IMG/VR virus record: IMGVR_UViG_3300034093_002374
Location: 3,814 to 67,813 of that record
Source: a virus
Strand: one strand, 5' to 3'
DNA length: 64,000 nt
The notes beneath the pieces are model-generated. The model saw only the letters and a list, made by a program, of their open reading frames with translations. It did not search any database and was not told the origin of the DNA. Both the position numbers and the translations under genes were made by a program. This document shows, one piece after another, positions 18,143 to 63,309 of the stretch; position 1 is the first letter of the stretch; each line of letters begins with the position of its first letter.

Positions 18143-18162
18143 GACCCCGTTAGATTAACCCT
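18143..18162 (+). promoter_or_regulatory. Motif A copy 1 (GACCCCGTTAGATTAACCCT)
   Basis: One of four intergenic near-identical 20-mers; upstream of holin. Confidence 0.65.
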
Positions 18163-18246: not shown

Positions 18247-18777
18247 ATGTTGGAAGGTCTTGTAGCCTCCCTCGCGAGCAAGGGTCTCGGTCTACTCGCT
18301 GGCGCTGTTGCTAAGCGAGGGACAGACTTCATTAAAGAAAAGACAGGTATTGATTTGTCAGCAACAGCTGAAGTCACAGATGACGAAGCCTCAATGTTGC
18401 GTGAGTTTCAGGAAACTAACCAAGTCGAAATCTTGGCGTATCTTACAGCAAAAGATCAAACAAATCTTGAAAGAGAGCGACTGACGTTTACTGATACGTC
18501 GAACGCCAGAGCAATGCAGATCGCGGCGCTGGGTTCTACAAGCAGCTTCGGTAAGTTGTTCGTTTACATCATGGCTTCGTATCTGTTGGTTGTGTCAACG
18601 GTTTACGTTGGTTACATTACCTTCGGTACAATTCCGGAAGCTAACGTTCGGTTTGCTGACGTCATTCTTGGTTTCTTACTCGGTACTGTAATTTCTTCTG
18701 TCATTAACTTTTTCCTTGGCTCTTCGCGTTCAGCGCAGACCAAAGACGATACTATTGCGAGAGCTCTGCATGGATGA
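18247..18777 (+). CDS. Holin-like membrane protein
   Basis: AAGGA RBS; two C-terminal hydrophobic helices ending FFLGSSRS; overlaps endolysin. Confidence 0.7.
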   Translation: MLEGLVASLASKGLGLLAGAVAKRGTDFIKEKTGIDLSATAEVTDDEASMLREFQETNQVEILAYLTAKDQTNLERERLTFTDTSNARAMQIAALGSTSSFGKLFVYIMASYLLVVSTVYVGYITFGTIPEANVRFADVILGFLLGTVISSVINFFLGSSRSAQTKDDTIARALHG

Positions 18778-19423
18778 GTTTAACTACGACGAGAGCAACT
18801 TGTTTGTTGCTATTCGTGAGCTTCTCGGTCGCGGTTTGACGAGTGACGAAGTTCGCAAGGTGCAGTCGGCTCGTGTTCGTGACGCCGTTGCTCAAGTGAC
18901 AACCGCCGTCGTCTCAGGGCAAAACGGTGCAACGGTCGGTATGCAACCGTCACAACGAATTATTGACTTCCTTCACGAGTTTGAAACGCTTCAGTTGGTG
19001 CCTTATAAAGACCCCGGCTCAGCAAACGGTCTCCCCATCACGTGTGGTTGGGGTTCGACGACGCACCTGGACGGTCGCAAGATTCAACTCGGTGAAGCAC
19101 CCTGGACAAAAGAGTACGCGGACCAAGTTTTCAACAAGGATCTTCGTGCCTTTACTGCGGGTCTTAACCTTCTCATCGGTAAGTCAAAAACGTCCCAAGG
19201 ACAGTTCGACGCCATGTTTAGCTTCGCTTACAATTGTGGACTGGACATCGATGAGGACACGAAAGCAGAGGGTCTCGGTGACAGTACGTTGCTGAGAAAA
19301 CATCTGGCAGGTGACTACGCGGGCGCAGCCGCTCAATTCGCAAGCTGGAATAAAAACGACGGGAAGGTTCTTAACGGACTGACGCGTCGTCGCGCTAGAG
19401 AAGCTGAAATTTACGCTTCTTAA
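18770..19423 (+). CDS. Endolysin (GH24 lysozyme)
   Basis: HEFE..LVPYKD...ITCGWG catalytic region, QFDAMFSFAYNCG, STLLRK, GLTRRRARE. Confidence 0.9.
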   Translation: MDEFNYDESNLFVAIRELLGRGLTSDEVRKVQSARVRDAVAQVTTAVVSGQNGATVGMQPSQRIIDFLHEFETLQLVPYKDPGSANGLPITCGWGSTTHLDGRKIQLGEAPWTKEYADQVFNKDLRAFTAGLNLLIGKSKTSQGQFDAMFSFAYNCGLDIDEDTKAEGLGDSTLLRKHLAGDYAGAAAQFASWNKNDGKVLNGLTRRRAREAEIYAS

Positions 19424-19428
19424 ACCTA

Positions 19429-19458
19429 ACGGACCTGAGTATGTCGTAAAACTGCTCA
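19429..19458 (+). ncRNA. Mini H-type pseudoknot motif, copy 1
   Basis: GGAC-CTGAGTAT-GTC-GTAAAAC-TGCTCA; loop TGAGTA pairs with TGCTCA. Confidence 0.55.
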
Positions 19459-19466
19459 CTAAAATT

Positions 19467-20825: not shown

Positions 20826-20859
20826 AGGGACCTGAACATGTCCTTCCAAAAACTGTTCA
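20826..20859 (+). ncRNA. Mini H-type pseudoknot motif, copy 2
   Basis: AGGGAC-CTGAACAT-GTCCTT-CCAAAAAC-TGTTCA; covaries with copy 1. Confidence 0.55.
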
Positions 20860-20964
20860 CTTTTACTTTTTATTTTTTCTTTCTCGGTCCGACCACATTG
20901 ACTCTTTCCCCAAGTGGGAATTTTAGTCAATTGTTTGAAACACCAAAGAAAGGAAGCTAGGTAA

Positions 20965-41592: not shown

Positions 41593-42044
41593 TTCGTCCG
41601 GCCAGGCTTGAAGACATACCGGCGTTGATACCGATGGGGTTAGCTTTCCACTCGGCATCCGGTTATGGCTCTTTCATTTCAATAGACGCCATAAGTCTAG
41701 CAAAATCCCTTCGGCGTATGATACGCGCCGAAGGGAACGCTCGTCTAATTGTTTATGAACGCGCCGGTGTCGTCATGGCAGCTGCCGGTGTTATCACTAT
41801 GCCCAGCTTTTTTAATGCTGACGTTATTGTTGGCAGCGAACAGTTTATTTTTGTGTCGCCTGATTTTAGAGGTGCGTCACACGGTTCTAAATTGATCGAG
41901 GCTTTAGAAAAAGTCGCTAAAGAGTTAGGTTGTCAAACCCTTTCTTTGGCTTGTCTAGAAACCCTTTCCCCAGAGTTGTTGCATAACGTATACCTATCGC
42001 ATGGTTATACGTTGATGGAACACATGTACATCAAACGGCTTTAA
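41589..42044 (+). CDS. GNAT-family N-acetyltransferase
   Basis: IRPARLEDIPAL, IFVSPDFRGASHGSKLI acetyl-CoA motif, YLSHGY. Confidence 0.85.
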   Translation: MIRPARLEDIPALIPMGLAFHSASGYGSFISIDAISLAKSLRRMIRAEGNARLIVYERAGVVMAAAGVITMPSFFNADVIVGSEQFIFVSPDFRGASHGSKLIEALEKVAKELGCQTLSLACLETLSPELLHNVYLSHGYTLMEHMYIKRL

Positions 42045-42212
42045 AACGAGACGTAAACTTTCTACCCCGCAAAAAACGCGCGTGGGCAGGCGTTTCTACC
42101 GCCGATGATGCACCCCTGGCCGACGCGAACTCGCTTGCGTCGCCCCCGGCCTCCCCGAAACGTCGGGGTCTGTCGGTCCACCCGGTCTGCGTGGCATCCA
42201 GCCGCTGCTCTT

Positions 42213-42232
42213 GACCCCGTTGACTTAACCCT
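42213..42232 (+). promoter_or_regulatory. Motif A copy 3 (GACCCCGTTGACTTAACCCT)
   Basis: Intergenic, upstream of 42316 gene. Confidence 0.65.
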
Positions 42233-42250
42233 ATATCTTGAAACCATTTC

Positions 42251-42279
42251 TGCGCAGATTAGGGTAACTTATATGATAG
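42251..42279 (+). promoter_or_regulatory. Motif B copy 2 (candidate promoter)
   Basis: TGCGCAGATTAGGGTAACTTATATGATAG. Confidence 0.6.
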
Positions 42280-42315
42280 GAATCAATACCTATCATCAAC
42301 CTTAAGGATGACACC

Positions 42316-43050
42316 ATGTCGCAACAACTGAAGCAAGTTTTCCAAGCCGCCGATGGCACGACTTTCGACACGCGTGCTGATGCTCTGGATTACATGCGTC
42401 GGCCGCTGATCGCAGCTGCCTTCAATAAGCTGACCGCTGACAATGCGGACCTGACGAACTGGCTCATTGCTGAGCAAGACGAAATTGAGAACGCCTTCGA
42501 CACGGGTACGATTCGTCGTATCACCAAGACCGAGAAGAAGCATCTGGCTTCCGCGCTCGATCGTGTTGTTGAGCTTGCCAAGGACGACCGCAAGCTGGCC
42601 TTCCTGGCTGAGCATGCCGAAGGTCTCAAGACGACCTTCCGTTACCCGCCTGTCACGCGTATGTCGGACGACGAGAAAGCCGTTGCCGCTAAAAACACGC
42701 TTATGGCTCGCACCAACAACAACGCTCAACTGACTGACTGGATTCTGGGTAACAAGGACGCTATCCTTGCTGCCTACCAAGCCGGTGTTGAGAAGCGTGA
42801 AGTCTCGCCGAAAGCCACCGAGGCTCTGCTTGCGTACCGCATCAAGACTGCGGAAGAAAAGCTGGTCGCTTTGCGCGCCAATGCTGAAAGCAAGCCGGAA
42901 GACATCGCTGAGCTGGAAGGCAAACTTGCCGCTATGAAGTCGGGCGTTGCCCCGACGATGGCCGCACCTTCGGCTGCTCCCGCCGTGGAAGCTGAAGAAG
43001 TCGTTGAAGAGGTGGTTGAAGAAACCGCCGAAGAAACTGTCAACGAGTAA
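42316..43050 (+). CDS. Probably highly expressed hypothetical protein with internal duplication
   Basis: AAGGA RBS; codon bias like tail tube/SSB; repeat NADLTNWLIAEQDEIENAFDTG / NAQLTDWILGNKDAILAAYQAG; acidic tail. Confidence 0.85.
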   Translation: MSQQLKQVFQAADGTTFDTRADALDYMRRPLIAAAFNKLTADNADLTNWLIAEQDEIENAFDTGTIRRITKTEKKHLASALDRVVELAKDDRKLAFLAEHAEGLKTTFRYPPVTRMSDDEKAVAAKNTLMARTNNNAQLTDWILGNKDAILAAYQAGVEKREVSPKATEALLAYRIKTAEEKLVALRANAESKPEDIAELEGKLAAMKSGVAPTMAAPSAAPAVEAEEVVEEVVEETAEETVNE

Positions 43051-43063
43051 TCAACAAAATTTC

Positions 43064-43352
43064 GACCCAAGTGGGTCCCTCTAGTCAGAGGCTAACTGAC
43101 AGTGTTAACGTCGATGGAGACACGCCTAAGCCGCGTGTCGTCAGAACTATTTGCAGGGCGTATCTTGTGTACGCTGCATGTCTAGCCTGACTCTTAAACG
43201 AAGTGCGCTTCAATTGGAAGCACTCGTCCAGCGCGTTTAACGCACTCCTCTTGAAGGGAGCTTCACCCTACTTTGTCAAGAAAGTAATGTGGCTCTGGGA
43301 CTTGACGCCTATGCTGTCGAAAGCATGAGGCTCCCTTCAAGCGGACTGCGTT
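43064..43352 (+). ncRNA. Candidate structured non-coding RNA
   Basis: No ORF; at least 9 stems including a perfect 12-bp helix and a 6-bp loop pseudoknot. Confidence 0.6.
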
Positions 43353-43353
43353 C

Positions 43354-43388
43354 AGCCCATTGTCCAAAGTGACGGTGGGCTTTTATTT
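43354..43388 (+). terminator. Rho-independent terminator
   Basis: AGCCCATTGTC-CAAAGT-GACGGTGGGCT followed by TTTATTT. Confidence 0.75.
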
Positions 43389-43429
43389 AGTCCGAAACCT
43401 AACAACCTAACCGCAAGGAGCGACCGTCT

Positions 43430-44852
43430 ATGAGTGATGACCAACAACGAGATGTAGCACCACCGCAACGTGGTCCGCACAAGCCTAAGCAACAAAAGCC
43501 ACGTGTTTACAGAGTTGTTTCAGTGACGCGGTTCGGACGAACTTCTCACATCGATTACCATGACGCTGAGACAGCTTTCATGACGTATGAGAACAAAAGA
43601 AACCTCATCAACTTCATGTTTGTCGCGCTCTTTCGTGACGGCCATCTGCTGCTAAACGATATTAAAGAGTACGTTGAAACAGAAGAGGAAGCTTGAAAGG
43701 CTGTTAGTTAACAATGGCAAAAATCAGTGAAATCGTAGCGGCACTGCTGCTAGTCAAAGAAGAAGAAGGCAATCTAGAAGTTGTTGTTGTTAAAGAAAAA
43801 GAATTTCGAGCACCGACACTTGAAAGCGCTTTTGTAGAGCTTTGTGATATAAGAGGCAAAACTACAGCACGTGTAGTCATTATAAAGGAGCTTTAGTGAC
43901 TAAACAAGTTCCAATTAAGCCTATTCGTCGTTTAATGCCTGTAACACCGTCATCGGCGTTACTTCGCAGTCAATTTATATACGACATTGTTCACTCTAAA
44001 CGTAAACTTGCTGTAGACCTTGATACAGGCGTTTTAACGATCTTGTCAGGACGTCACCTTCTCGGACCTGAACCAAAGTACGTGTTTCGTTCAGGTGGTG
44101 CAATTATTAGTGTGCCGCTGTCACGTGATTGGGGTGAGGCAAAAGAGCAACTTTTAGAACTTTCAATTGACGTACCTCGTGGATCATTTTGTCATGGTTC
44201 ACGCTGTGTGTCATTTTTAGGTTCCTGGAGAAATTTCAGAGATACCGTAAGTTTTATTTATAATAAAACAAGAAAAGCGAGCAATTAAAATTATACCCAC
44301 TCGGATGAGTGAGGCTTTGAGAGGAGTCTTAAAATGCCTTTTAACAATACAAGCTAAAGAGGTCAACCTTGGAGCTACGAGAAGAAATTGAGCAATCTGC
44401 TGACGCCCTTGAAAAACTCTTTTACAAGGCTGCAGATGCACGCGACAAAGCCAAAGGCCCTGAAAAGACACGGCTACGTCGTATTACGAAAAGAATCGAT
44501 GCGGCACTTTCTTTGATGGAGCACGCTGAAGATGAATCTGAAAGAAACACCAATGTTGCAAGTGCAAGAAATACTGGCGCAACTACCTGAGTCAACAAAA
44601 GAATATGTAGCTACACTTCTTGTTTGTCCTAGTCATCGTTTAGACAAAAACGCAAAACTGGCGCATAATGTTATTGTTGGTTACGCCAACTGTACGCCGT
44701 CTGATGCAAAAGAAGTTTGTGATATACTTATTCGACTTGGTAGAGAGTGCAATAAATGGGAGCTTCGTGAAAAGTGGGAAGCTGCTTTTCATGACATTAA
44801 TACAAAACCACTTGGAACAAGATCGCATGCAACGGGTCATCGTCTTATCTAG
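43430..44852 (+). other. Run of small hypothetical CDS (43430-43696, 43714-43896, 43896-44288, 44369-44590, ~44553-44852)
   Basis: Tightly packed + strand ORFs, several with RBS; no recognisable motifs. Confidence 0.6.
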
Positions 44853-49894: not shown

Positions 49895-50122
49895 CGCAAC
49901 TTTTGTCTAACCTTCCGCCCAAGTCTCCTCTCATCACACACGGTGAGAGGTTTCTTGGTCTGAAGAGGGACAGACTTGCTTCACTGGCACTCTCTCTAAC
50001 TCACCGTTGCCAGTATGCTAACCCAAAAGGAGGCTGTTATGTAAAACGCTTGGGCTCTCGACCACAGCTTAAAACTGTCGATGACCTGTGATGTCATATT
50101 AAACTCACCCTCCCTAATAAAC

Positions 50123-50196
50123 TTTCTCCTCAACTTTACTTGTCCTTCGTGGATAGGTGAAGTTGAGGAGAGTTCTTTCTTTATTTTTTTATTTTT
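50123..50196 (+). terminator. Very long hairpin terminator
   Basis: 22-bp stem TTCTCCTCAACTTTACTTGTCC / GGATAGGTGAAGTTGAGGAGAG (all non-WC pairs are G-U) then a long T tract. Confidence 0.8.
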
Positions 50197-57822: not shown

Positions 57823-60800
57823 ATGACGGCAGCAATCATTACGCGCGCCACGGCGGGAACGGGTGCCACCGTCAAAGGAGCACCTCTCACAAACGCTGAG
57901 GTTGACACGAACTTTATCAACATCAACGCCGAAGTTGATCTTAAAGCTGACTATGCAAGTCCCAAACTTGGGGCGGGTTCGTTAGCGTCGCTGACTACTG
58001 GTACTAATAATACAGCGCTTGGTGTCAACTCTCTTACGCTAAACACGTCGGGTAGTACCAACACAGGCGTAGGCCGTAATACGCTAAACGCAAACACAAC
58101 AGGTACTGATAACACCGCCTCAGGTGCTTTTGCGCTTTTGTCCAACACGACAGGCTCGTATAACACAGCAGACGGTGGTTATGCGCTGCAAAACAACACG
58201 GTTGGCAGTAACAATACCGCAGTCGGTCACAGTGCTCTTGTGTCTGCTACCACAGCCAACAACAACACTGCTGTCGGCGCTTACGCACTGGACGCTAACA
58301 CGACGGGCACCTACAATACCGCTATGGGCGTGAACGCCCTCGGGGCGACTACGACAGGCAACTACAACGTCGTAATCGGGGGAGCCGCCGGAACGAACAA
58401 TACGACCGGATCACTAAACACAGTAGTCGGGTACACCGCTCTGGCGTCAAATACGACGGGCTCACAGAACTCCGCCTTCGGCGCGCAGTCGATGCACAAC
58501 AACACCGAAGGCTACTTTAACGCCGCCTATGGCGCTAACACGCTGTACGCAAACACGACAGGTATCCAGAACACTGCTATTGGGTGGGGTGCGCTAAACC
58601 TAGCTACTACCGCTTCTAACAACGTTGCTGTTGGCGCTTTTGCACTGGATGCCAACATTACAGGCGCGGGTAACGTTGCGGTTGGCTACAACTCGCTCGG
58701 GGCCAACACAACCGCCAGCAACAACAGCGCATTCGGTGTTAACGCACTGCAAAGCACTACTACAGGTGTCGATAACGTCGCGGTAGGGGCCAGTGCTTTG
58801 GCAACAAATACGACGGCTTCTAACAATACAGCTGTGGGTGTAAACGCCTTGTTTGCTAATACCACAGGCGCTAACAATGTGGCTATTGGCCTAAACAGTC
58901 TTGATGCTAACACGACGGGTGCCGAGAACGTCGCGCTAGGGGCGAGCGCGCTTGGGGCTAACACCACGGGCGCGAATAATGTTGCCGTAGGCAATAGCGC
59001 ACTCAGCGCGAACACTACTATTTCAAACCTCACGGCTGTCGGTGTTACGGCGCTACGTGATAACACAACCGGCACTAACAACACCGGACTTGGTCGCGCG
59101 GCACTTCAAGTCAATACGACAGGCAGTGAAAACACTGCCGTCGGTACCTACGCGCTACAAAACAATACTACGGGTGGTAGTAACACAGGCACTGGCTATC
59201 AGGTATTGTTCAGGAACACGACAGGAACTCGCAACTCGGCGTTCGGCCTTAACAGTGCTTTTGATAACACGACCGGTACTGACCTTGCAGGCTTCGGCTA
59301 CGCCGCGCTCGGTGCCAACACGACCGGTACCCTCAACAGTGGTTTCGGCTCTTACGCACTTTATTACAACACCACGGGTGCCGGAAATACTGCCGTAGGT
59401 TACTCTGCACTGTTTTTGAACACGACCGGTACCGTTAATACGGCTGTCGGTCGTAGTGCTATGCAAGCTAACACAACAGGTGAGTACAACGCGGCACTCG
59501 GTTATGTCGCGCTCGCCGGAAACACAATCGGTATCTACAACACCGCAATCGGTGCGTTGGCTCTTTACTCGGCCACAACCGGTAGCTTCAATACCGCGCT
59601 CGGTGGAAACACGTTGAGGTTTGCTTCAACGTCAAGCAACAATATTGCGGTCGGCTACAACGCCCTTTATACAAACACTACAGGGGCACAGAATATCGCC
59701 GTCGGTGTTGGAGCGTTGAACTCTAACACGACTGCGGACTACAACATTGCAATCGGCTACTTAGCGCTCACGGGCAACACAACCGGCAGCCAAAACCTTG
59801 CTGTAGGTACAAGTGCGTTGTTTTCTAATACAACCGGAACGCAAAACTCTGCTTTCGGTTTTCAATCGCTTTATTACAACACAACTGGATATAACAACGT
59901 TACTCAAGGTTATAATACGTTGTTTGCCAATGTTAGTGGCGCTAATAATACGGCAATTGGACACAGCGCGCTCGCGGCAAACACTGCCTCTAATAACACG
60001 GCTGTTGGTGCAAACGCTCTAGACGCTAACACCACGGGTACTTACAATACCGCTGTTGGTTCAGGAGCGTTAGGAGCTAATACAACGGGCGCTGATAACG
60101 CTGCGTTTGGCGGGTTAGCACTAGTTACTAACACGACCGGTATTAACAACATTGCTATCGGCACTGTGGCTTTGCATTCCAATACCACAGGTAGCTACAA
60201 CATAGCTAACGGCGTTAACGCGCTACTTAACAATAGTACTGGAACTGGCAACATTGGTGTCGGTCAAGACGCCCTTAGAGCCAACACCACGGCCTCCAAC
60301 AACATCGCAATTGGCGCGTACGCGCTGGACGCTAACACGACGGGCGCTAGCAATGCGGCGGTGGGCTATAGTTCGCTTAGCGCTAATACAACTGGCGTAG
60401 GAAACGTAGCTGTCGGTGTGTATACACTGTATGCAAATACAATCGGACAAAACAATGTCGCTATTGGTCCAAGTGCACTAGAAACAAACACTACAGGCAG
60501 TCAAAATACAGCCGTAGGAATGCAAGCACTTTTGTATGCTACGACTGGCAATTATAACGTCGCTGTCGGTGCAGCGTCTTTGGATGCTTGCACTACAGGC
60601 TCCGACAACACTGCTGTAGGATCTAGTGCCCTTAGTTCTGTAACTACGGCGTCAAACAACACCGCTGTTGGTAGAGCGGCTCTAAGAGACACTTCAACCG
60701 GGCAAAATAACGTAGCCCTTGGCTATCAAGCGCTAGCAAGCAACACGACAGGTGTTGAAAACGTAGCAGTTGGTGTTAACTCGCTAGTAGCCAATACTAC

Positions 60801-63309
60801 TGGTTATTATAATACCGCTATTGGTACTTATGCACTAACTTCTAACACAACTGGCTTTACTAACGTAGCAGTTGGCATGAGCGCTTTGACGGCTAATACA
60901 ACAGGCGCATATAACGTATGCCTTGGTCTTTCAACGTTCTTTAGCAACACCACCGGTAATAACAACATCGGCGTAGGTTATACCGCTGGCTATTATAATA
61001 CGACTGGTGTTGAAAACATTGCAATCGGCGGTTCGTCGCTACAAGTAAACACTACTGGTAATTCTAACTGCGCCATTGGGCAACAAGCCTTGTTGTATAA
61101 CTCCACGGGGAGCAATAACGTAGGCATTGGTTCAGGTGCACTTCGAGCTAACACCGTTACCGATAACACGGCTGTGGGTGTAAATGCAGGTTATAACACT
61201 TCTACCGGTGAACGTAACGTGTTTCTTGGACGCGCGGCGGCACAAACTAACACAACTGGTAGTTATAACATTGCTGTTGGTTACACGGCTTTGAATTCAA
61301 ACACTACAGGTGGCAATATTGTCGCCGTTGGTTACAATGCGTTGTCGGCCAACACAACAGCTTCACACAACACGGCAGTCGGTGCTTACTCGCTTCAAAC
61401 TACTACAACGGGTAATGCTAACGCAGCCGTTGGCTACAATTCTATGGGTTTGAATACAACCGGAGCAGAAAATTCTGCATTTGGTTATTCAGCCATGGCG
61501 TCTAATACAACCGGCTCTTATAACACTGCAGTCGGCATTGTAGCGTTGAATGCTAACACTACAGGCCACAATAACGTCGCCGTCGGTCGTAGTGCGTTGC
61601 CTGCCAACACAACTGGTGCTTATAATACGGCACTCGGTGCTCAGAGTCTTTATAGTAATACAACGGCGAGTCTTAACGTTTCTATTGGTTACGGCACGCT
61701 GTATGCTAACACAACAGGCGCATATAATACGGCTGTTGGTACGTACGCTTTGGACGCAAATACGACGGGCCAAGATAACGTTGCGGTTGGTTACAACTCG
61801 CTAGGGGCGAACACAACGGCAAACAACAATATTGCTATCGGCTCTAACATAATGTCGTCTAATACGACCGGTGCGCAAAACTTTGCCGCTGGTACGTATG
61901 CAATGGCTTCTAACACGACCGGTTCGGAAAACGTTGCCATTGGCTTCCAAGCGTTGCTGAGCAACACAACCGCAAGTTACAGCGTCGCAATCGGCCGTAA
62001 TGCTTTGCTGAATTCTACTGTTAATGCCAACGTTGCAATTGGTTGTTTCTCACTCGCCGCGAACACGACAGGTACATATAACGTAGCTGTCGGGACGTAC
62101 GCGTTAGAAGATAACACAACCGGTTACTCTAACGTCTCTGTCGGTTACAACTCAATGGCTGCAAATACGGTAGGCAGCGAAAATGTGGCCGTTGGTTTCT
62201 TTGCGCTTACTAGCAACACAACTGGCAGCTACAACACTGCTATGGGTATTGCGGCGCTATACTCCACTACGACTGGCAGCTACAACACTGCAGTTGGTGC
62301 CGGTAGTTCAGAGAAAGTAACTACAGGTGCTAATAATACAAGCATCGGCTATCGTGCACTTTACAACAACACAAGCGCCTCCAGTAACGTAGCAGTCGGT
62401 TCAAATGCGCTAATTAACAACACAACCGGCTCACAGAACACAGCTGTAGGTACGGCGTCATTGGCAACCGCCACGACGGCTGATCTTAACACAGCTATCG
62501 GCGTGGCTACTTTGGCCGCATCAACGACCGGCACTCAGAACACCGCCGTTGGCGCGGAAGCCCTGGACGCTAACACAACCGGCAGTTATAATATTGCTGT
62601 TGGTTATGGGGCGGGCGGTGCCAACACAACCGGTAGCTATAATACTGTTGTTGGTCGTTCGGCATTCTTAACAAACACCTCAGGTAGTAGCAACACTGCG
62701 CTTGGCTACGCAGCACTGTATGCTTCAACAACGGGTGACAGCAACACGGCTGTCGGTAACAGCGCTCTAAGTGGCAACACAACTGGTACTCAAAACGTAG
62801 CGATGGGTCTAGGCGCACTAGAAAACAACACAACCGCGAACTACAACACCGCTGTCGGTGTGCAGTCGCAGCAGGTAAACACAACCGGCACGCAGAACAC
62901 CTCGATCGGCCACCGCGCTTTGTATCAGAATACAACCGGCTCACAGAATGCCGCGTTTGGCTTGAGCGCGATGGAAAGTAACACTACTGGCCAAGACAAC
63001 GTCGCCCTTGGTCGTTACTCTCTCCATACTAACACCACCGGCAACGTAAATATCGCCATCGGTCACTACGTCGTCTGTGACAGCAGTACCGGCAGCAACC
63101 AAATCAACATCGGCAACGTTTACCGCCATAATCGTCTGGTTCATACACCTGTCACGCTTGCCACTCTCAACGCTTTTGTCGGCCTAGCGACGGGCACCCG
63201 AGCAATGTGCTCGGATTCAAATCATAGGAATTTCGATCAAACTGTCTCCGGTGGCGGTAGTAATACTGTGCCTGTGTGGTACAACGGTTCTAACTGGGTC
63301 GTTGGTTAA
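57823..63309 (+). CDS. Long beta-helical fibre/adhesin (~120 x 14-aa repeats)
   Basis: NTTGxxNxAxGxxAL repeats, YadA-head-like; KGAPLTNAEVDTNF N-terminal motif. Confidence 0.88.
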   Translation: MTAAIITRATAGTGATVKGAPLTNAEVDTNFININAEVDLKADYASPKLGAGSLASLTTGTNNTALGVNSLTLNTSGSTNTGVGRNTLNANTTGTDNTASGAFALLSNTTGSYNTADGGYALQNNTVGSNNTAVGHSALVSATTANNNTAVGAYALDANTTGTYNTAMGVNALGATTTGNYNVVIGGAAGTNNTTGSLNTVVGYTALASNTTGSQNSAFGAQSMHNNTEGYFNAAYGANTLYANTTGIQNTAIGWGALNLATTASNNVAVGAFALDANITGAGNVAVGYNSLGANTTASNNSAFGVNALQSTTTGVDNVAVGASALATNTTASNNTAVGVNALFANTTGANNVAIGLNSLDANTTGAENVALGASALGANTTGANNVAVGNSALSANTTISNLTAVGVTALRDNTTGTNNTGLGRAALQVNTTGSENTAVGTYALQNNTTGGSNTGTGYQVLFRNTTGTRNSAFGLNSAFDNTTGTDLAGFGYAALGANTTGTLNSGFGSYALYYNTTGAGNTAVGYSALFLNTTGTVNTAVGRSAMQANTTGEYNAALGYVALAGNTIGIYNTAIGALALYSATTGSFNTALGGNTLRFASTSSNNIAVGYNALYTNTTGAQNIAVGVGALNSNTTADYNIAIGYLALTGNTTGSQNLAVGTSALFSNTTGTQNSAFGFQSLYYNTTGYNNVTQGYNTLFANVSGANNTAIGHSALAANTASNNTAVGANALDANTTGTYNTAVGSGALGANTTGADNAAFGGLALVTNTTGINNIAIGTVALHSNTTGSYNIANGVNALLNNSTGTGNIGVGQDALRANTTASNNIAIGAYALDANTTGASNAAVGYSSLSANTTGVGNVAVGVYTLYANTIGQNNVAIGPSALETNTTGSQNTAVGMQALLYATTGNYNVAVGAASLDACTTGSDNTAVGSSALSSVTTASNNTAVGRAALRDTSTGQNNVALGYQALASNTTGVENVAVGVNSLVANTTGYYNTAIGTYALTSNTTGFTNVAVGMSALTANTTGAYNVCLGLSTFFSNTTGNNNIGVGYTAGYYNTTGVENIAIGGSSLQVNTTGNSNCAIGQQALLYNSTGSNNVGIGSGALRANTVTDNTAVGVNAGYNTSTGERNVFLGRAAAQTNTTGSYNIAVGYTALNSNTTGGNIVAVGYNALSANTTASHNTAVGAYSLQTTTTGNANAAVGYNSMGLNTTGAENSAFGYSAMASNTTGSYNTAVGIVALNANTTGHNNVAVGRSALPANTTGAYNTALGAQSLYSNTTASLNVSIGYGTLYANTTGAYNTAVGTYALDANTTGQDNVAVGYNSLGANTTANNNIAIGSNIMSSNTTGAQNFAAGTYAMASNTTGSENVAIGFQALLSNTTASYSVAIGRNALLNSTVNANVAIGCFSLAANTTGTYNVAVGTYALEDNTTGYSNVSVGYNSMAANTVGSENVAVGFFALTSNTTGSYNTAMGIAALYSTTTGSYNTAVGAGSSEKVTTGANNTSIGYRALYNNTSASSNVAVGSNALINNTTGSQNTAVGTASLATATTADLNTAIGVATLAASTTGTQNTAVGAEALDANTTGSYNIAVGYGAGGANTTGSYNTVVGRSAFLTNTSGSSNTALGYAALYASTTGDSNTAVGNSALSGNTTGTQNVAMGLGALENNTTANYNTAVGVQSQQVNTTGTQNTSIGHRALYQNTTGSQNAAFGLSAMESNTTGQDNVALGRYSLHTNTTGNVNIAIGHYVVCDSSTGSNQINIGNVYRHNRLVHTPVTLATLNAFVGLATGTRAMCSDSNHRNFDQTVSGGGSNTVPVWYNGSNWVVG

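Follow-up and report, generated by a model that had tools for sequence, protein, structure and literature searches.

Structured 3′ tail of a putative promoter-to-terminator cassette in an uncultured freshwater phage

A 379 nt gap between genes (43051–43429) in the genome of an uncultured freshwater phage is best read, from its sequence and that of its relatives, as the 3′ untranslated tail of a promoter-to-terminator cassette, in which transcription predicted to start at a promoter-like motif would cross a single gene. The exceptional folding of the gap is confined to its last ~150 bases, which hold a predicted three-way junction, here called domain 3, and an intrinsic terminator, and the stability of the first 188 nt is marginal when compared with shuffled sequence. 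The chances are about even that the gap acts in cis as a 3′-end module, through protection of the mRNA, RNase III-type processing or help with termination. The element lies outside the known RNA families, most resembles a known kind of thing at an unusual size, and looks like an RNA-stability or processing element and not a new complex RNA machine.

The window, meaning the whole 64000 nt stretch of DNA that was analysed, makes up most of a 67.8 kb IMG/VR virus record, and it was found in many sequencing runs, whose labels read lake or fresh water. The long ORFs are all on the + strand, and PHROG matches include a T7-type single-subunit RNA polymerase, a DNA polymerase, a primase-helicase, a ribonucleotide reductase and a terminase. 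The RNA polymerase shares 34% identity with those of the nearest cultured relatives, roseophages DSS3_VP1 and DSS3_PM1, and a blastn search of 42000–44000 against GenBank phages, using settings for distant matches, returned no match. An ORF of 1828 aa (57823–63309) was found to consist of dozens of diverged 51 nt repeats (families D1-D7). Contigs assembled from the reads of four runs were short, with a depth of 2–5, and at least 99% identical to the window, the sole difference inside the element being C to T at 43078 in X13. A metatranscriptome contig of 294 nt (42817–43110, zero mismatches) bridges the stop codon and extends 60 nt from the gene into the tail, though DNA carry-over is possible and the contig says nothing on the ends or level of transcripts.

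ORFs of 60 aa or more are absent from the gap, which ranks second in size of the 22 such gaps in the window. An initial annotation, made from the sequence alone, had described it as an ORF-free and stably folded tract encoding a novel RNA of ~320 nt with several domains, a pseudoknot and its own terminator. The absence of ORFs and the stable folding were both borne out, and each of the helix-forming words that it listed was found where it had been placed. Rfam 15 gave no match over the window at the gathering threshold, and a search of 42900–43550 up to E 10 gave four matches of 15–20 bits, against thresholds of 42–75. ARAGORN and the Rfam tRNA model found no tRNA or tmRNA gene in the window, in agreement with the annotation's view that the gap is neither, and its novelty is not removed by a family match. 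Readings of the gap as tRNA-like or as a ribozyme, riboswitch, packaging RNA (pRNA) or ROOL/GOLLD RNA were set aside, as neither ARAGORN nor Rfam gave a match, and nothing was found in favour of the ribozyme, decoy or switch roles that had been proposed.

The cassette is predicted to begin at a 19 nt motif upstream of the 244-aa gene (Table 1). Four copies with up to 2 mismatches are present in the window, all on the + strand, where 0.01 would be expected, and five copies with up to 3 mismatches, all forward, in the 67.8 kb record (window positions 18143, 24048, 42213 and 50225; record position G000:C1:623), each ahead of a block of genes. The motif occurs exactly in at least 10 other IMG/VR contigs and presumably resembles the T3 promoter. 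As it is repeated, confined to one strand and suitably positioned, it is likely to be a promoter of the phage's own polymerase, for which it is the candidate. No copy was found between the stop codon and the next gene. The motif and ~50 nt of leader also precede the homologous gene in relatives L131, L135 and L133, and a scan of the viral collection with the 5′ leader pattern returned only L131 and the G001 record. The gene product has 67 homologues in metagenomes, and scans of viral and metagenome collections gave 113 loci with a relative, but no match was found in Pfam, PHROG, PDB (by sequence or fold), BFVD or Atlas. The ORF at 18716–19423 was considered as a possible paralogue and rejected by comparison. 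On alignment, the predicted ends of the cassette are conserved in L131 and L135, and the motif and leader also in L133.

At the other end of the cassette, the terminator has a homologue in L131 (83.8% identity over 37 nt by blastn) and in L135, and a scan of the viral collection with the pattern of its arms returned only L131. Its specificity for the + strand comes from two U-G pairs. It is indeed an intrinsic terminator, but as it is kept in relatives that lack domains 1 and 3, it is part of the gene cassette and not the RNA's own, as the initial annotation had it. The genes downstream of the terminator are not homologous with those in L131 or L135, and since the ends are shared, the conserved unit would be promoter, leader, gene and terminator. 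The distance from stop codon to terminator end is 338 nt in the window and ~812 nt in L131, where it includes two small ORFs, and was estimated by eye at ~170 nt in L135, ~140 nt in L133 and ~50 nt in L134. As the tract in L131 is parted from the gene by these two ORFs, it appears to go with the end of the transcription unit and not with the gene. The closer relatives (L131, L133–L135) came from a scan of the viral collection with the 19 nt motif, and protein searches gave up to 57% identity; the closest protein homologues (P0002, P0003 and P0004; 86, 82 and 68% identity) were absent from the returns of the viral and metagenome scans and lie outside all locus comparisons.

Other short repeated signals were observed in the genome. 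The leader motif of 21 nt found ahead of the next ORF (family D19), which ends in a ribosome-binding site, precedes five genes (18219, 19929, 20522, 43399 and 63306) and may be a translation enhancer. Throughout the phage group, a separate 26 nt motif, motif A, is conserved as a covarying hairpin stem with a constant 11 nt loop, and matches no Rfam family. It is present in the window at 19432–19462 and 20829–20863, with a looser copy near 50083–50112, and in relatives at L009:3110, L010:3122, L015:3192/3252/3423, L057:3176, L064:3129, L131 (two copies) and L135:2182, usually 8–124 nt past a stop codon and often right before a T-rich run or terminator. Motif A may signal a sequence-specific pause or termination, mark a site of RNA processing or act as a second class of promoter. 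The 5′ end of the element (43064 onward) was tried as a degenerate motif A hairpin and rejected, its arms not being complementary.

Table 1. Features of the predicted cassette and of the folded tract that follows the gene (window coordinates; z and shuffle counts from the folding analysis)
Feature	Coordinates	Strand	Remarks
19-nt phage-promoter-like motif	42213–42231	+	start codon of the 244-aa gene ~85 nt downstream
5′ leader ending in a ribosome-binding site	42232–42315	+	~50 nt after the motif align with L131 and L135
244-aa gene, all-helical product with acidic tail	42316–43050	+	ORF; model pLDDT 76
All upstream of domain 3 (188 nt)	43051–43238	+	z -1.79; 9/200 shuffles as good
5-bp hairpin right behind the stop codon	43064–43077	+	z -2.37; 7/200 shuffles as good
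Domain 1	43083–43192	+	z -1.40; 17/200 shuffles as good
5-bp hairpin with 7-nt loop, favoured partner choice for CTGAC 43096	43084–43100	+	mean pair probability 0.97
Alternative large domain	43104–43240	+	z -1.78; 11/200 shuffles as good
7-bp hairpin with 7-nt loop	43119–43139	+	pair probability 0.998
Bulged 9-bp hairpin	43152–43178	+	pair probability: inner 4 bp 0.98, outer 5 bp 0.65
Domain 2	43193–43240	+	z -0.37; 63/200 shuffles as good
Domain-2 hairpin	43203–43223	+	apical part nearly identical in L131; basal 4 bp covary
Short tract, 9/10 letters shared with L131	43226–43235	+	in both phages predicted to pair at long range, as the 3′ strand of the helix
Domain 3, three-way junction, 114 nt	43239–43352	+	-54.6 kcal/mol; minimum-energy fold 14% of ensemble; z -7.60; 0/200 shuffles as good
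Terminator piece	43353–43395	+	z -3.90; 0/200 shuffles as good
Intrinsic terminator, 11-bp stem (6 G-C), 6-nt loop, T-rich run	43354–43388	+	stem-loop 43354–43381, then T-rich tail
Leader and ribosome-binding-site motif before the next ORF (43430–43696)	43399–43419	+	repeat family D19, 5 copies

The + strand of 43051–43400 was predicted to fold at -134.6 kcal/mol, compared with -102.7 +/- 5.7 kcal/mol for 100 shuffled sequences, none of which was as stable (z -5.56). When 300 nt windows were taken every 100 nt over the 64 kb and corrected for GC content, the one starting at 43101 ranked first (-3.6 sd). The stability expected from the initial annotation is thus present in the gap as a whole, but the excess is local to domain 3 and the terminator (Table 1). 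The - strand was equally stable (z -6.87). The + strand is nevertheless favoured because of the T-run, the larger number of G-U pairs in its minimum-energy fold (8 of 113 pairs, against 3 of 110 on the - strand) and the location of all genes on that strand. A further structured tract, with a long hairpin terminator just before a copy of the promoter-like motif, was seen at 49895–50195, which also ranks high among the outliers in folding (-2.5 and -2.9 sd).

The architecture drawn in the initial annotation was compared with the energy model over 43083–43352. Its pairs alone gave -71.7 kcal/mol and the best fold containing all of them -95.9 kcal/mol, which is 9.6 kcal/mol worse than the unconstrained minimum of -105.5 kcal/mol. 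The helices proposed to close domains 1 and 2 have pair probabilities no higher than 0.02 (0.014 and 0.018 for the closing helix of domain 1; 0.004 for the outer helix of domain 2) and were not supported. The inner hairpins fared better, with those at 43119–43139, 43159–43173 (pair probability 0.98), 43269–43286 and 43311–43326 all well supported. Both of the GTCAG words suggested as partners for CTGAC 43096 are present, but one dominates, and the helix with GTCAG 43140 has a pair probability of 0.00. As the 188 nt at the 5′ end barely beat shuffled sequence and the domain-closing helices are improbable, the proposal of a single RNA of ~320 nt with several domains is not supported.

L131 is the sole relative that shares sequence with the interior of the gap, in the hairpin at 43203–43223 and the ten letters behind it (78.8% identity over 33 nt by blastn). 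The four basal pairs of this hairpin all remain paired in L131 although both partners have been replaced in three of them and a single partner in the fourth, which provides direct, though two-sequence, evidence of a real single-strand hairpin. Comparison of the two sequences thus shows pairing kept at the RNA level in this one small hairpin, and its pattern returned L131 and 15 further matches from the viral collection, the latter being confined to the pattern and taken as chance. The covariation expected for the tract was therefore seen in this hairpin, but domain 3 has no counterpart in the relatives compared. It is missing at the homologous place in L131 and L135, and in L131 an unrelated hairpin of 20 bp (z -4.78) stands there directly before the terminator. 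Searches of the loci of 115 relatives with blastn and nhmmer found no counterpart of either domain 1 or domain 3 (best E 1.5), and there was none in the closer loci added later. A covariance model built on the single sequence of domain 3 found only itself in the window and in 98 of the 116 loci L004–L119, 18 duplicate-looking loci being left out, and a scan of a genome collection for homologues of the element gave one distant locus only.

Domain 3 is predicted to be closed by a stem of ~24 bp (6+3+15, with two 1 nt bulges), inside which the junction carries hairpins at 43269–43286 and 43311–43326 and the tract 43301–43306. The perfect 12-bp helix recognised in the initial annotation was supported with a pair probability of 0.999, and the two hairpins had probabilities of 0.98 and 0.90, respectively. 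The complementarity reported between the loop of hairpin 43269–43286 and the tract at 43301–43306 is also present. A putative H-type pseudoknot between 43275–80 and 43301–06 is possible, in which the pairing would engage all six bases of the loop and leave zero linker. Hairpins recognised by RNase III-type enzymes are nearly continuous helices of about two turns, 20 bp or more, and the predicted helix of domain 3 is of such a length (6+3+15 bp, interrupted by the two 1 nt bulges).

The gaps behind the homologous gene in distant relatives were also found to be structured. Of 45 distinct gaps of at least 120 nt behind this gene, some of them holding a tRNA, 26 had z below -4. The same loci supplied 45 control gaps, of which 7 did so, and the medians were -4.27 and -1.89 (Mann-Whitney p 1.4e-6, relatedness ignored). 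At the end of many of the gaps behind the gene, a terminator is immediately preceded by a 19-bp hairpin whose loop is rich in pyrimidines. In this hairpin module, 17 of 27 pairs have changed on both sides among 8 sequences; when the alignment was extended to 29 distinct sequences, its rows being fitted to covariance model R2, 90.3% of cells pair (61.3% when shuffled and 40–52% with slid partners) and 26 of 27 pairs have changes on both sides. The two-hairpin module of the distant relatives looks like an undescribed phage RNA motif. It was found by R2 in 19 of 98 loci at E < 0.01 (L064:3269–3361, L010:3267–3357, L057:3262–3346, L009:3171–3248, L058:2881–2961 and 14 more), with 8 of the 19 being training rows. 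The hairpin is closed by A-run and U-run ends, and the pyrimidine-rich loop is anti-Shine-Dalgarno-like.

Domain 3 and the terminator were tested as a member of this module. R2 gave 17.3 bits on 43239–43388 (E 0.64 over the window with filters off, and E 0.025 when the search was limited to 2.5 kb), and 19.2 and 15.9 bits on the other two terminator regions of the window, the latter being the tract at 49895–50195. The match is too unspecific to establish membership, and as the score is level with those of other terminators, only a likeness of layout is claimed. The window and the distant relatives have in common the slot, the gene family and a hairpin of ~19–24 bp against a terminator on the + strand, but share no sequence similarity, and the hairpin in the window carries a 58 nt junction where the others have the pyrimidine-rich loop. 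Comparison of the predicted folds shows that what recurs from phage to phage is a hairpin of two helical turns immediately ahead of the terminator (~24 bp in the window, 20 bp in L131 and 19 bp in the distant relatives), the one in the window being the largest and the most elaborate. In many relatives (L010, L021, L049, L084 and others), a scattered tRNA island with types Thr, Ser, Met, Leu, Arg, Gln and Asn was observed in the 2.5 kb that follow the homologous gene, in or after the equivalent gap; the window is without any tRNA.

If the gap is a 3′ untranslated tail, transcripts would start at the motif at 42213, cross the gene and the tail, and mostly stop at 43388, and the promoter-less genes downstream would be fed by read-through. 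The tail would then be a string of local hairpins, of which the key one would be the ~24-bp stem of domain 3 against the terminator. This stem would be long enough to serve as a site for an RNase III-type enzyme, specific for double strands, or to block exonucleases arriving from the 3′ end. It may set and shield the 3′ end of an abundant mRNA, part it from the read-through RNA, or aid termination.

Some features fit less easily with a tail acting in cis. The - strand folds as well as the + strand, a stabiliser would not need anything as elaborate as the junction with its loop-complementary tract, and the conserved apical sequence of 43203–43223 suggests a specific partner. A trans-acting RNA, either domain 3 with the terminator (~150 nt) or the whole tail, could be released from the 3′ end of the mRNA and act on host or phage targets or bind a protein, as do RNAs from 3′ untranslated regions. 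The stability and definition of domain 3 (z -7.6; 14% of the ensemble in one fold), the conserved top and covarying base of hairpin 43203–43223, the covarying hairpin with a conserved pyrimidine-rich loop in the slot of distant relatives, and the lack of a match to known families would all suit such an RNA. It is however unlikely, as domain 3 is not conserved in the relatives compared, no promoter of its own was found, and no antisense match of 12 nt or longer to the phage's own transcripts was seen, the five of 11 nt being about the number estimated by chance (~5). It is distinctly unlikely that the slot holds an undescribed class of phage 3′-end RNAs, represented here by the 114 nt three-way junction, into which the long hairpin of the distant relatives would have grown in this phage, released with the terminator and acting in trans; the loop complementary to the junction strand could in that case form a pseudoknot or pair between molecules, and action in trans would be, for example, the binding of a host factor or self-association. 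The order of structured tract, terminator, ribosome-binding site and gene, with no promoter-like motif between terminator and gene and two possible partners for CTGAC 43096, would also fit a cis-regulatory leader or attenuator, in which the folded tract sets read-through into the genes from 43430 by a switch or antitermination. This was considered very unlikely, given that one CTGAC partner dominates (0.97 vs 0.00), no convincing alternative pairing with the terminator arms was seen, no riboswitch or leader family matched, and the terminator is conserved with L131 and L135 where the genes downstream of it are not.

Domain 3 might instead have no function as RNA and be a 114-bp palindromic insertion before the terminator, such as a miniature inverted-repeat-like unit or a protein-binding palindrome. 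Its arms form a 27 nt inverted repeat that is 89% matched, its helices are nearly all Watson-Crick, both strands fold alike, and it is absent from the homologous place in L131 and L135. However, there is one copy in the record, the paired 12-mers of its stem had no match in a pattern scan of the viral collection, and inspection by eye showed no target-site duplication beside it. That L131 has a different hairpin at the same place speaks against a chance insertion and for a slot whose structure is kept, leaving a DNA-level element with only a slim chance. That the tract has no function beyond the terminator, the remainder being neutral spacer that folds by chance, would account for the near-shuffled stability of the first 188 nt (z -1.79, 9/200) and the poor conservation of the interior. 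It is highly doubtful in view of the z of -7.6 for domain 3, the first rank of the stretch in the window, the covariation in hairpin 43203–43223, and the 3′ flanks of the gene family, which are more structured than control gaps.

The preferred reading, a 3′ tail acting in cis, has parallels in known systems. In T7-type phages, a late cassette consists of a promoter, an abundant gene and a stem-loop terminator, and T7 has RNase III hairpins between cistrons. The window phage is likewise a phage with a single-subunit RNA polymerase and a repeated promoter-like motif, one gene lies between that motif and a strong stem-loop terminator so that genes downstream would need read-through, and a helix of 20 bp or more lies between cistrons. 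It differs in the far longer tail (338 nt), in the three-way junction carried by the long helix, which is a candidate cleavage site only, and in a polymerase 34% identical to that of its nearest cultured relatives, DSS3_VP1 and DSS3_PM1. Bacterial 3′ untranslated regions give rise to small RNAs, which, like the last ~150 nt here, comprise the last hairpin and the mRNA terminator and have no promoter of their own, but in the window the terminator hairpin is not preceded by a U-rich tract, and no seed or target was identified. The packaging RNA of phi29 is ~115 nt long, with a helix that closes its 5′ and 3′ ends, a three-way junction and a loop complementary to an unpaired tract; domain 3 resembles it in shape only. 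It has no Rfam match, and the window phage has an ordinary large terminase. ROOL and GOLLD are reported to be large phage-associated RNAs near tRNA genes (bioRxiv 10.1101/2024.12.08.627333; PMC5737381). The element is similarly phage-borne and ornate and occupies a slot that holds tRNA genes in relatives, but is two to three times shorter, has no Rfam match even at E 10 and is not conserved.

If the preferred reading is true, this uncultured freshwater phage, which has a T7-type polymerase, uses a structured 3′ end to shape how one strongly expressed gene is expressed. The value of the finding would lie mostly in the map that it provides of the promoter-like motif, leader and terminator of a cassette common to a wide group of uncultured phages, in which the stretch before the terminator would be a fast-evolving slot for long hairpins. 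Should domain 3 or the hairpin of the relatives be a processed trans-acting RNA, it would represent a new family of phage non-coding RNAs.
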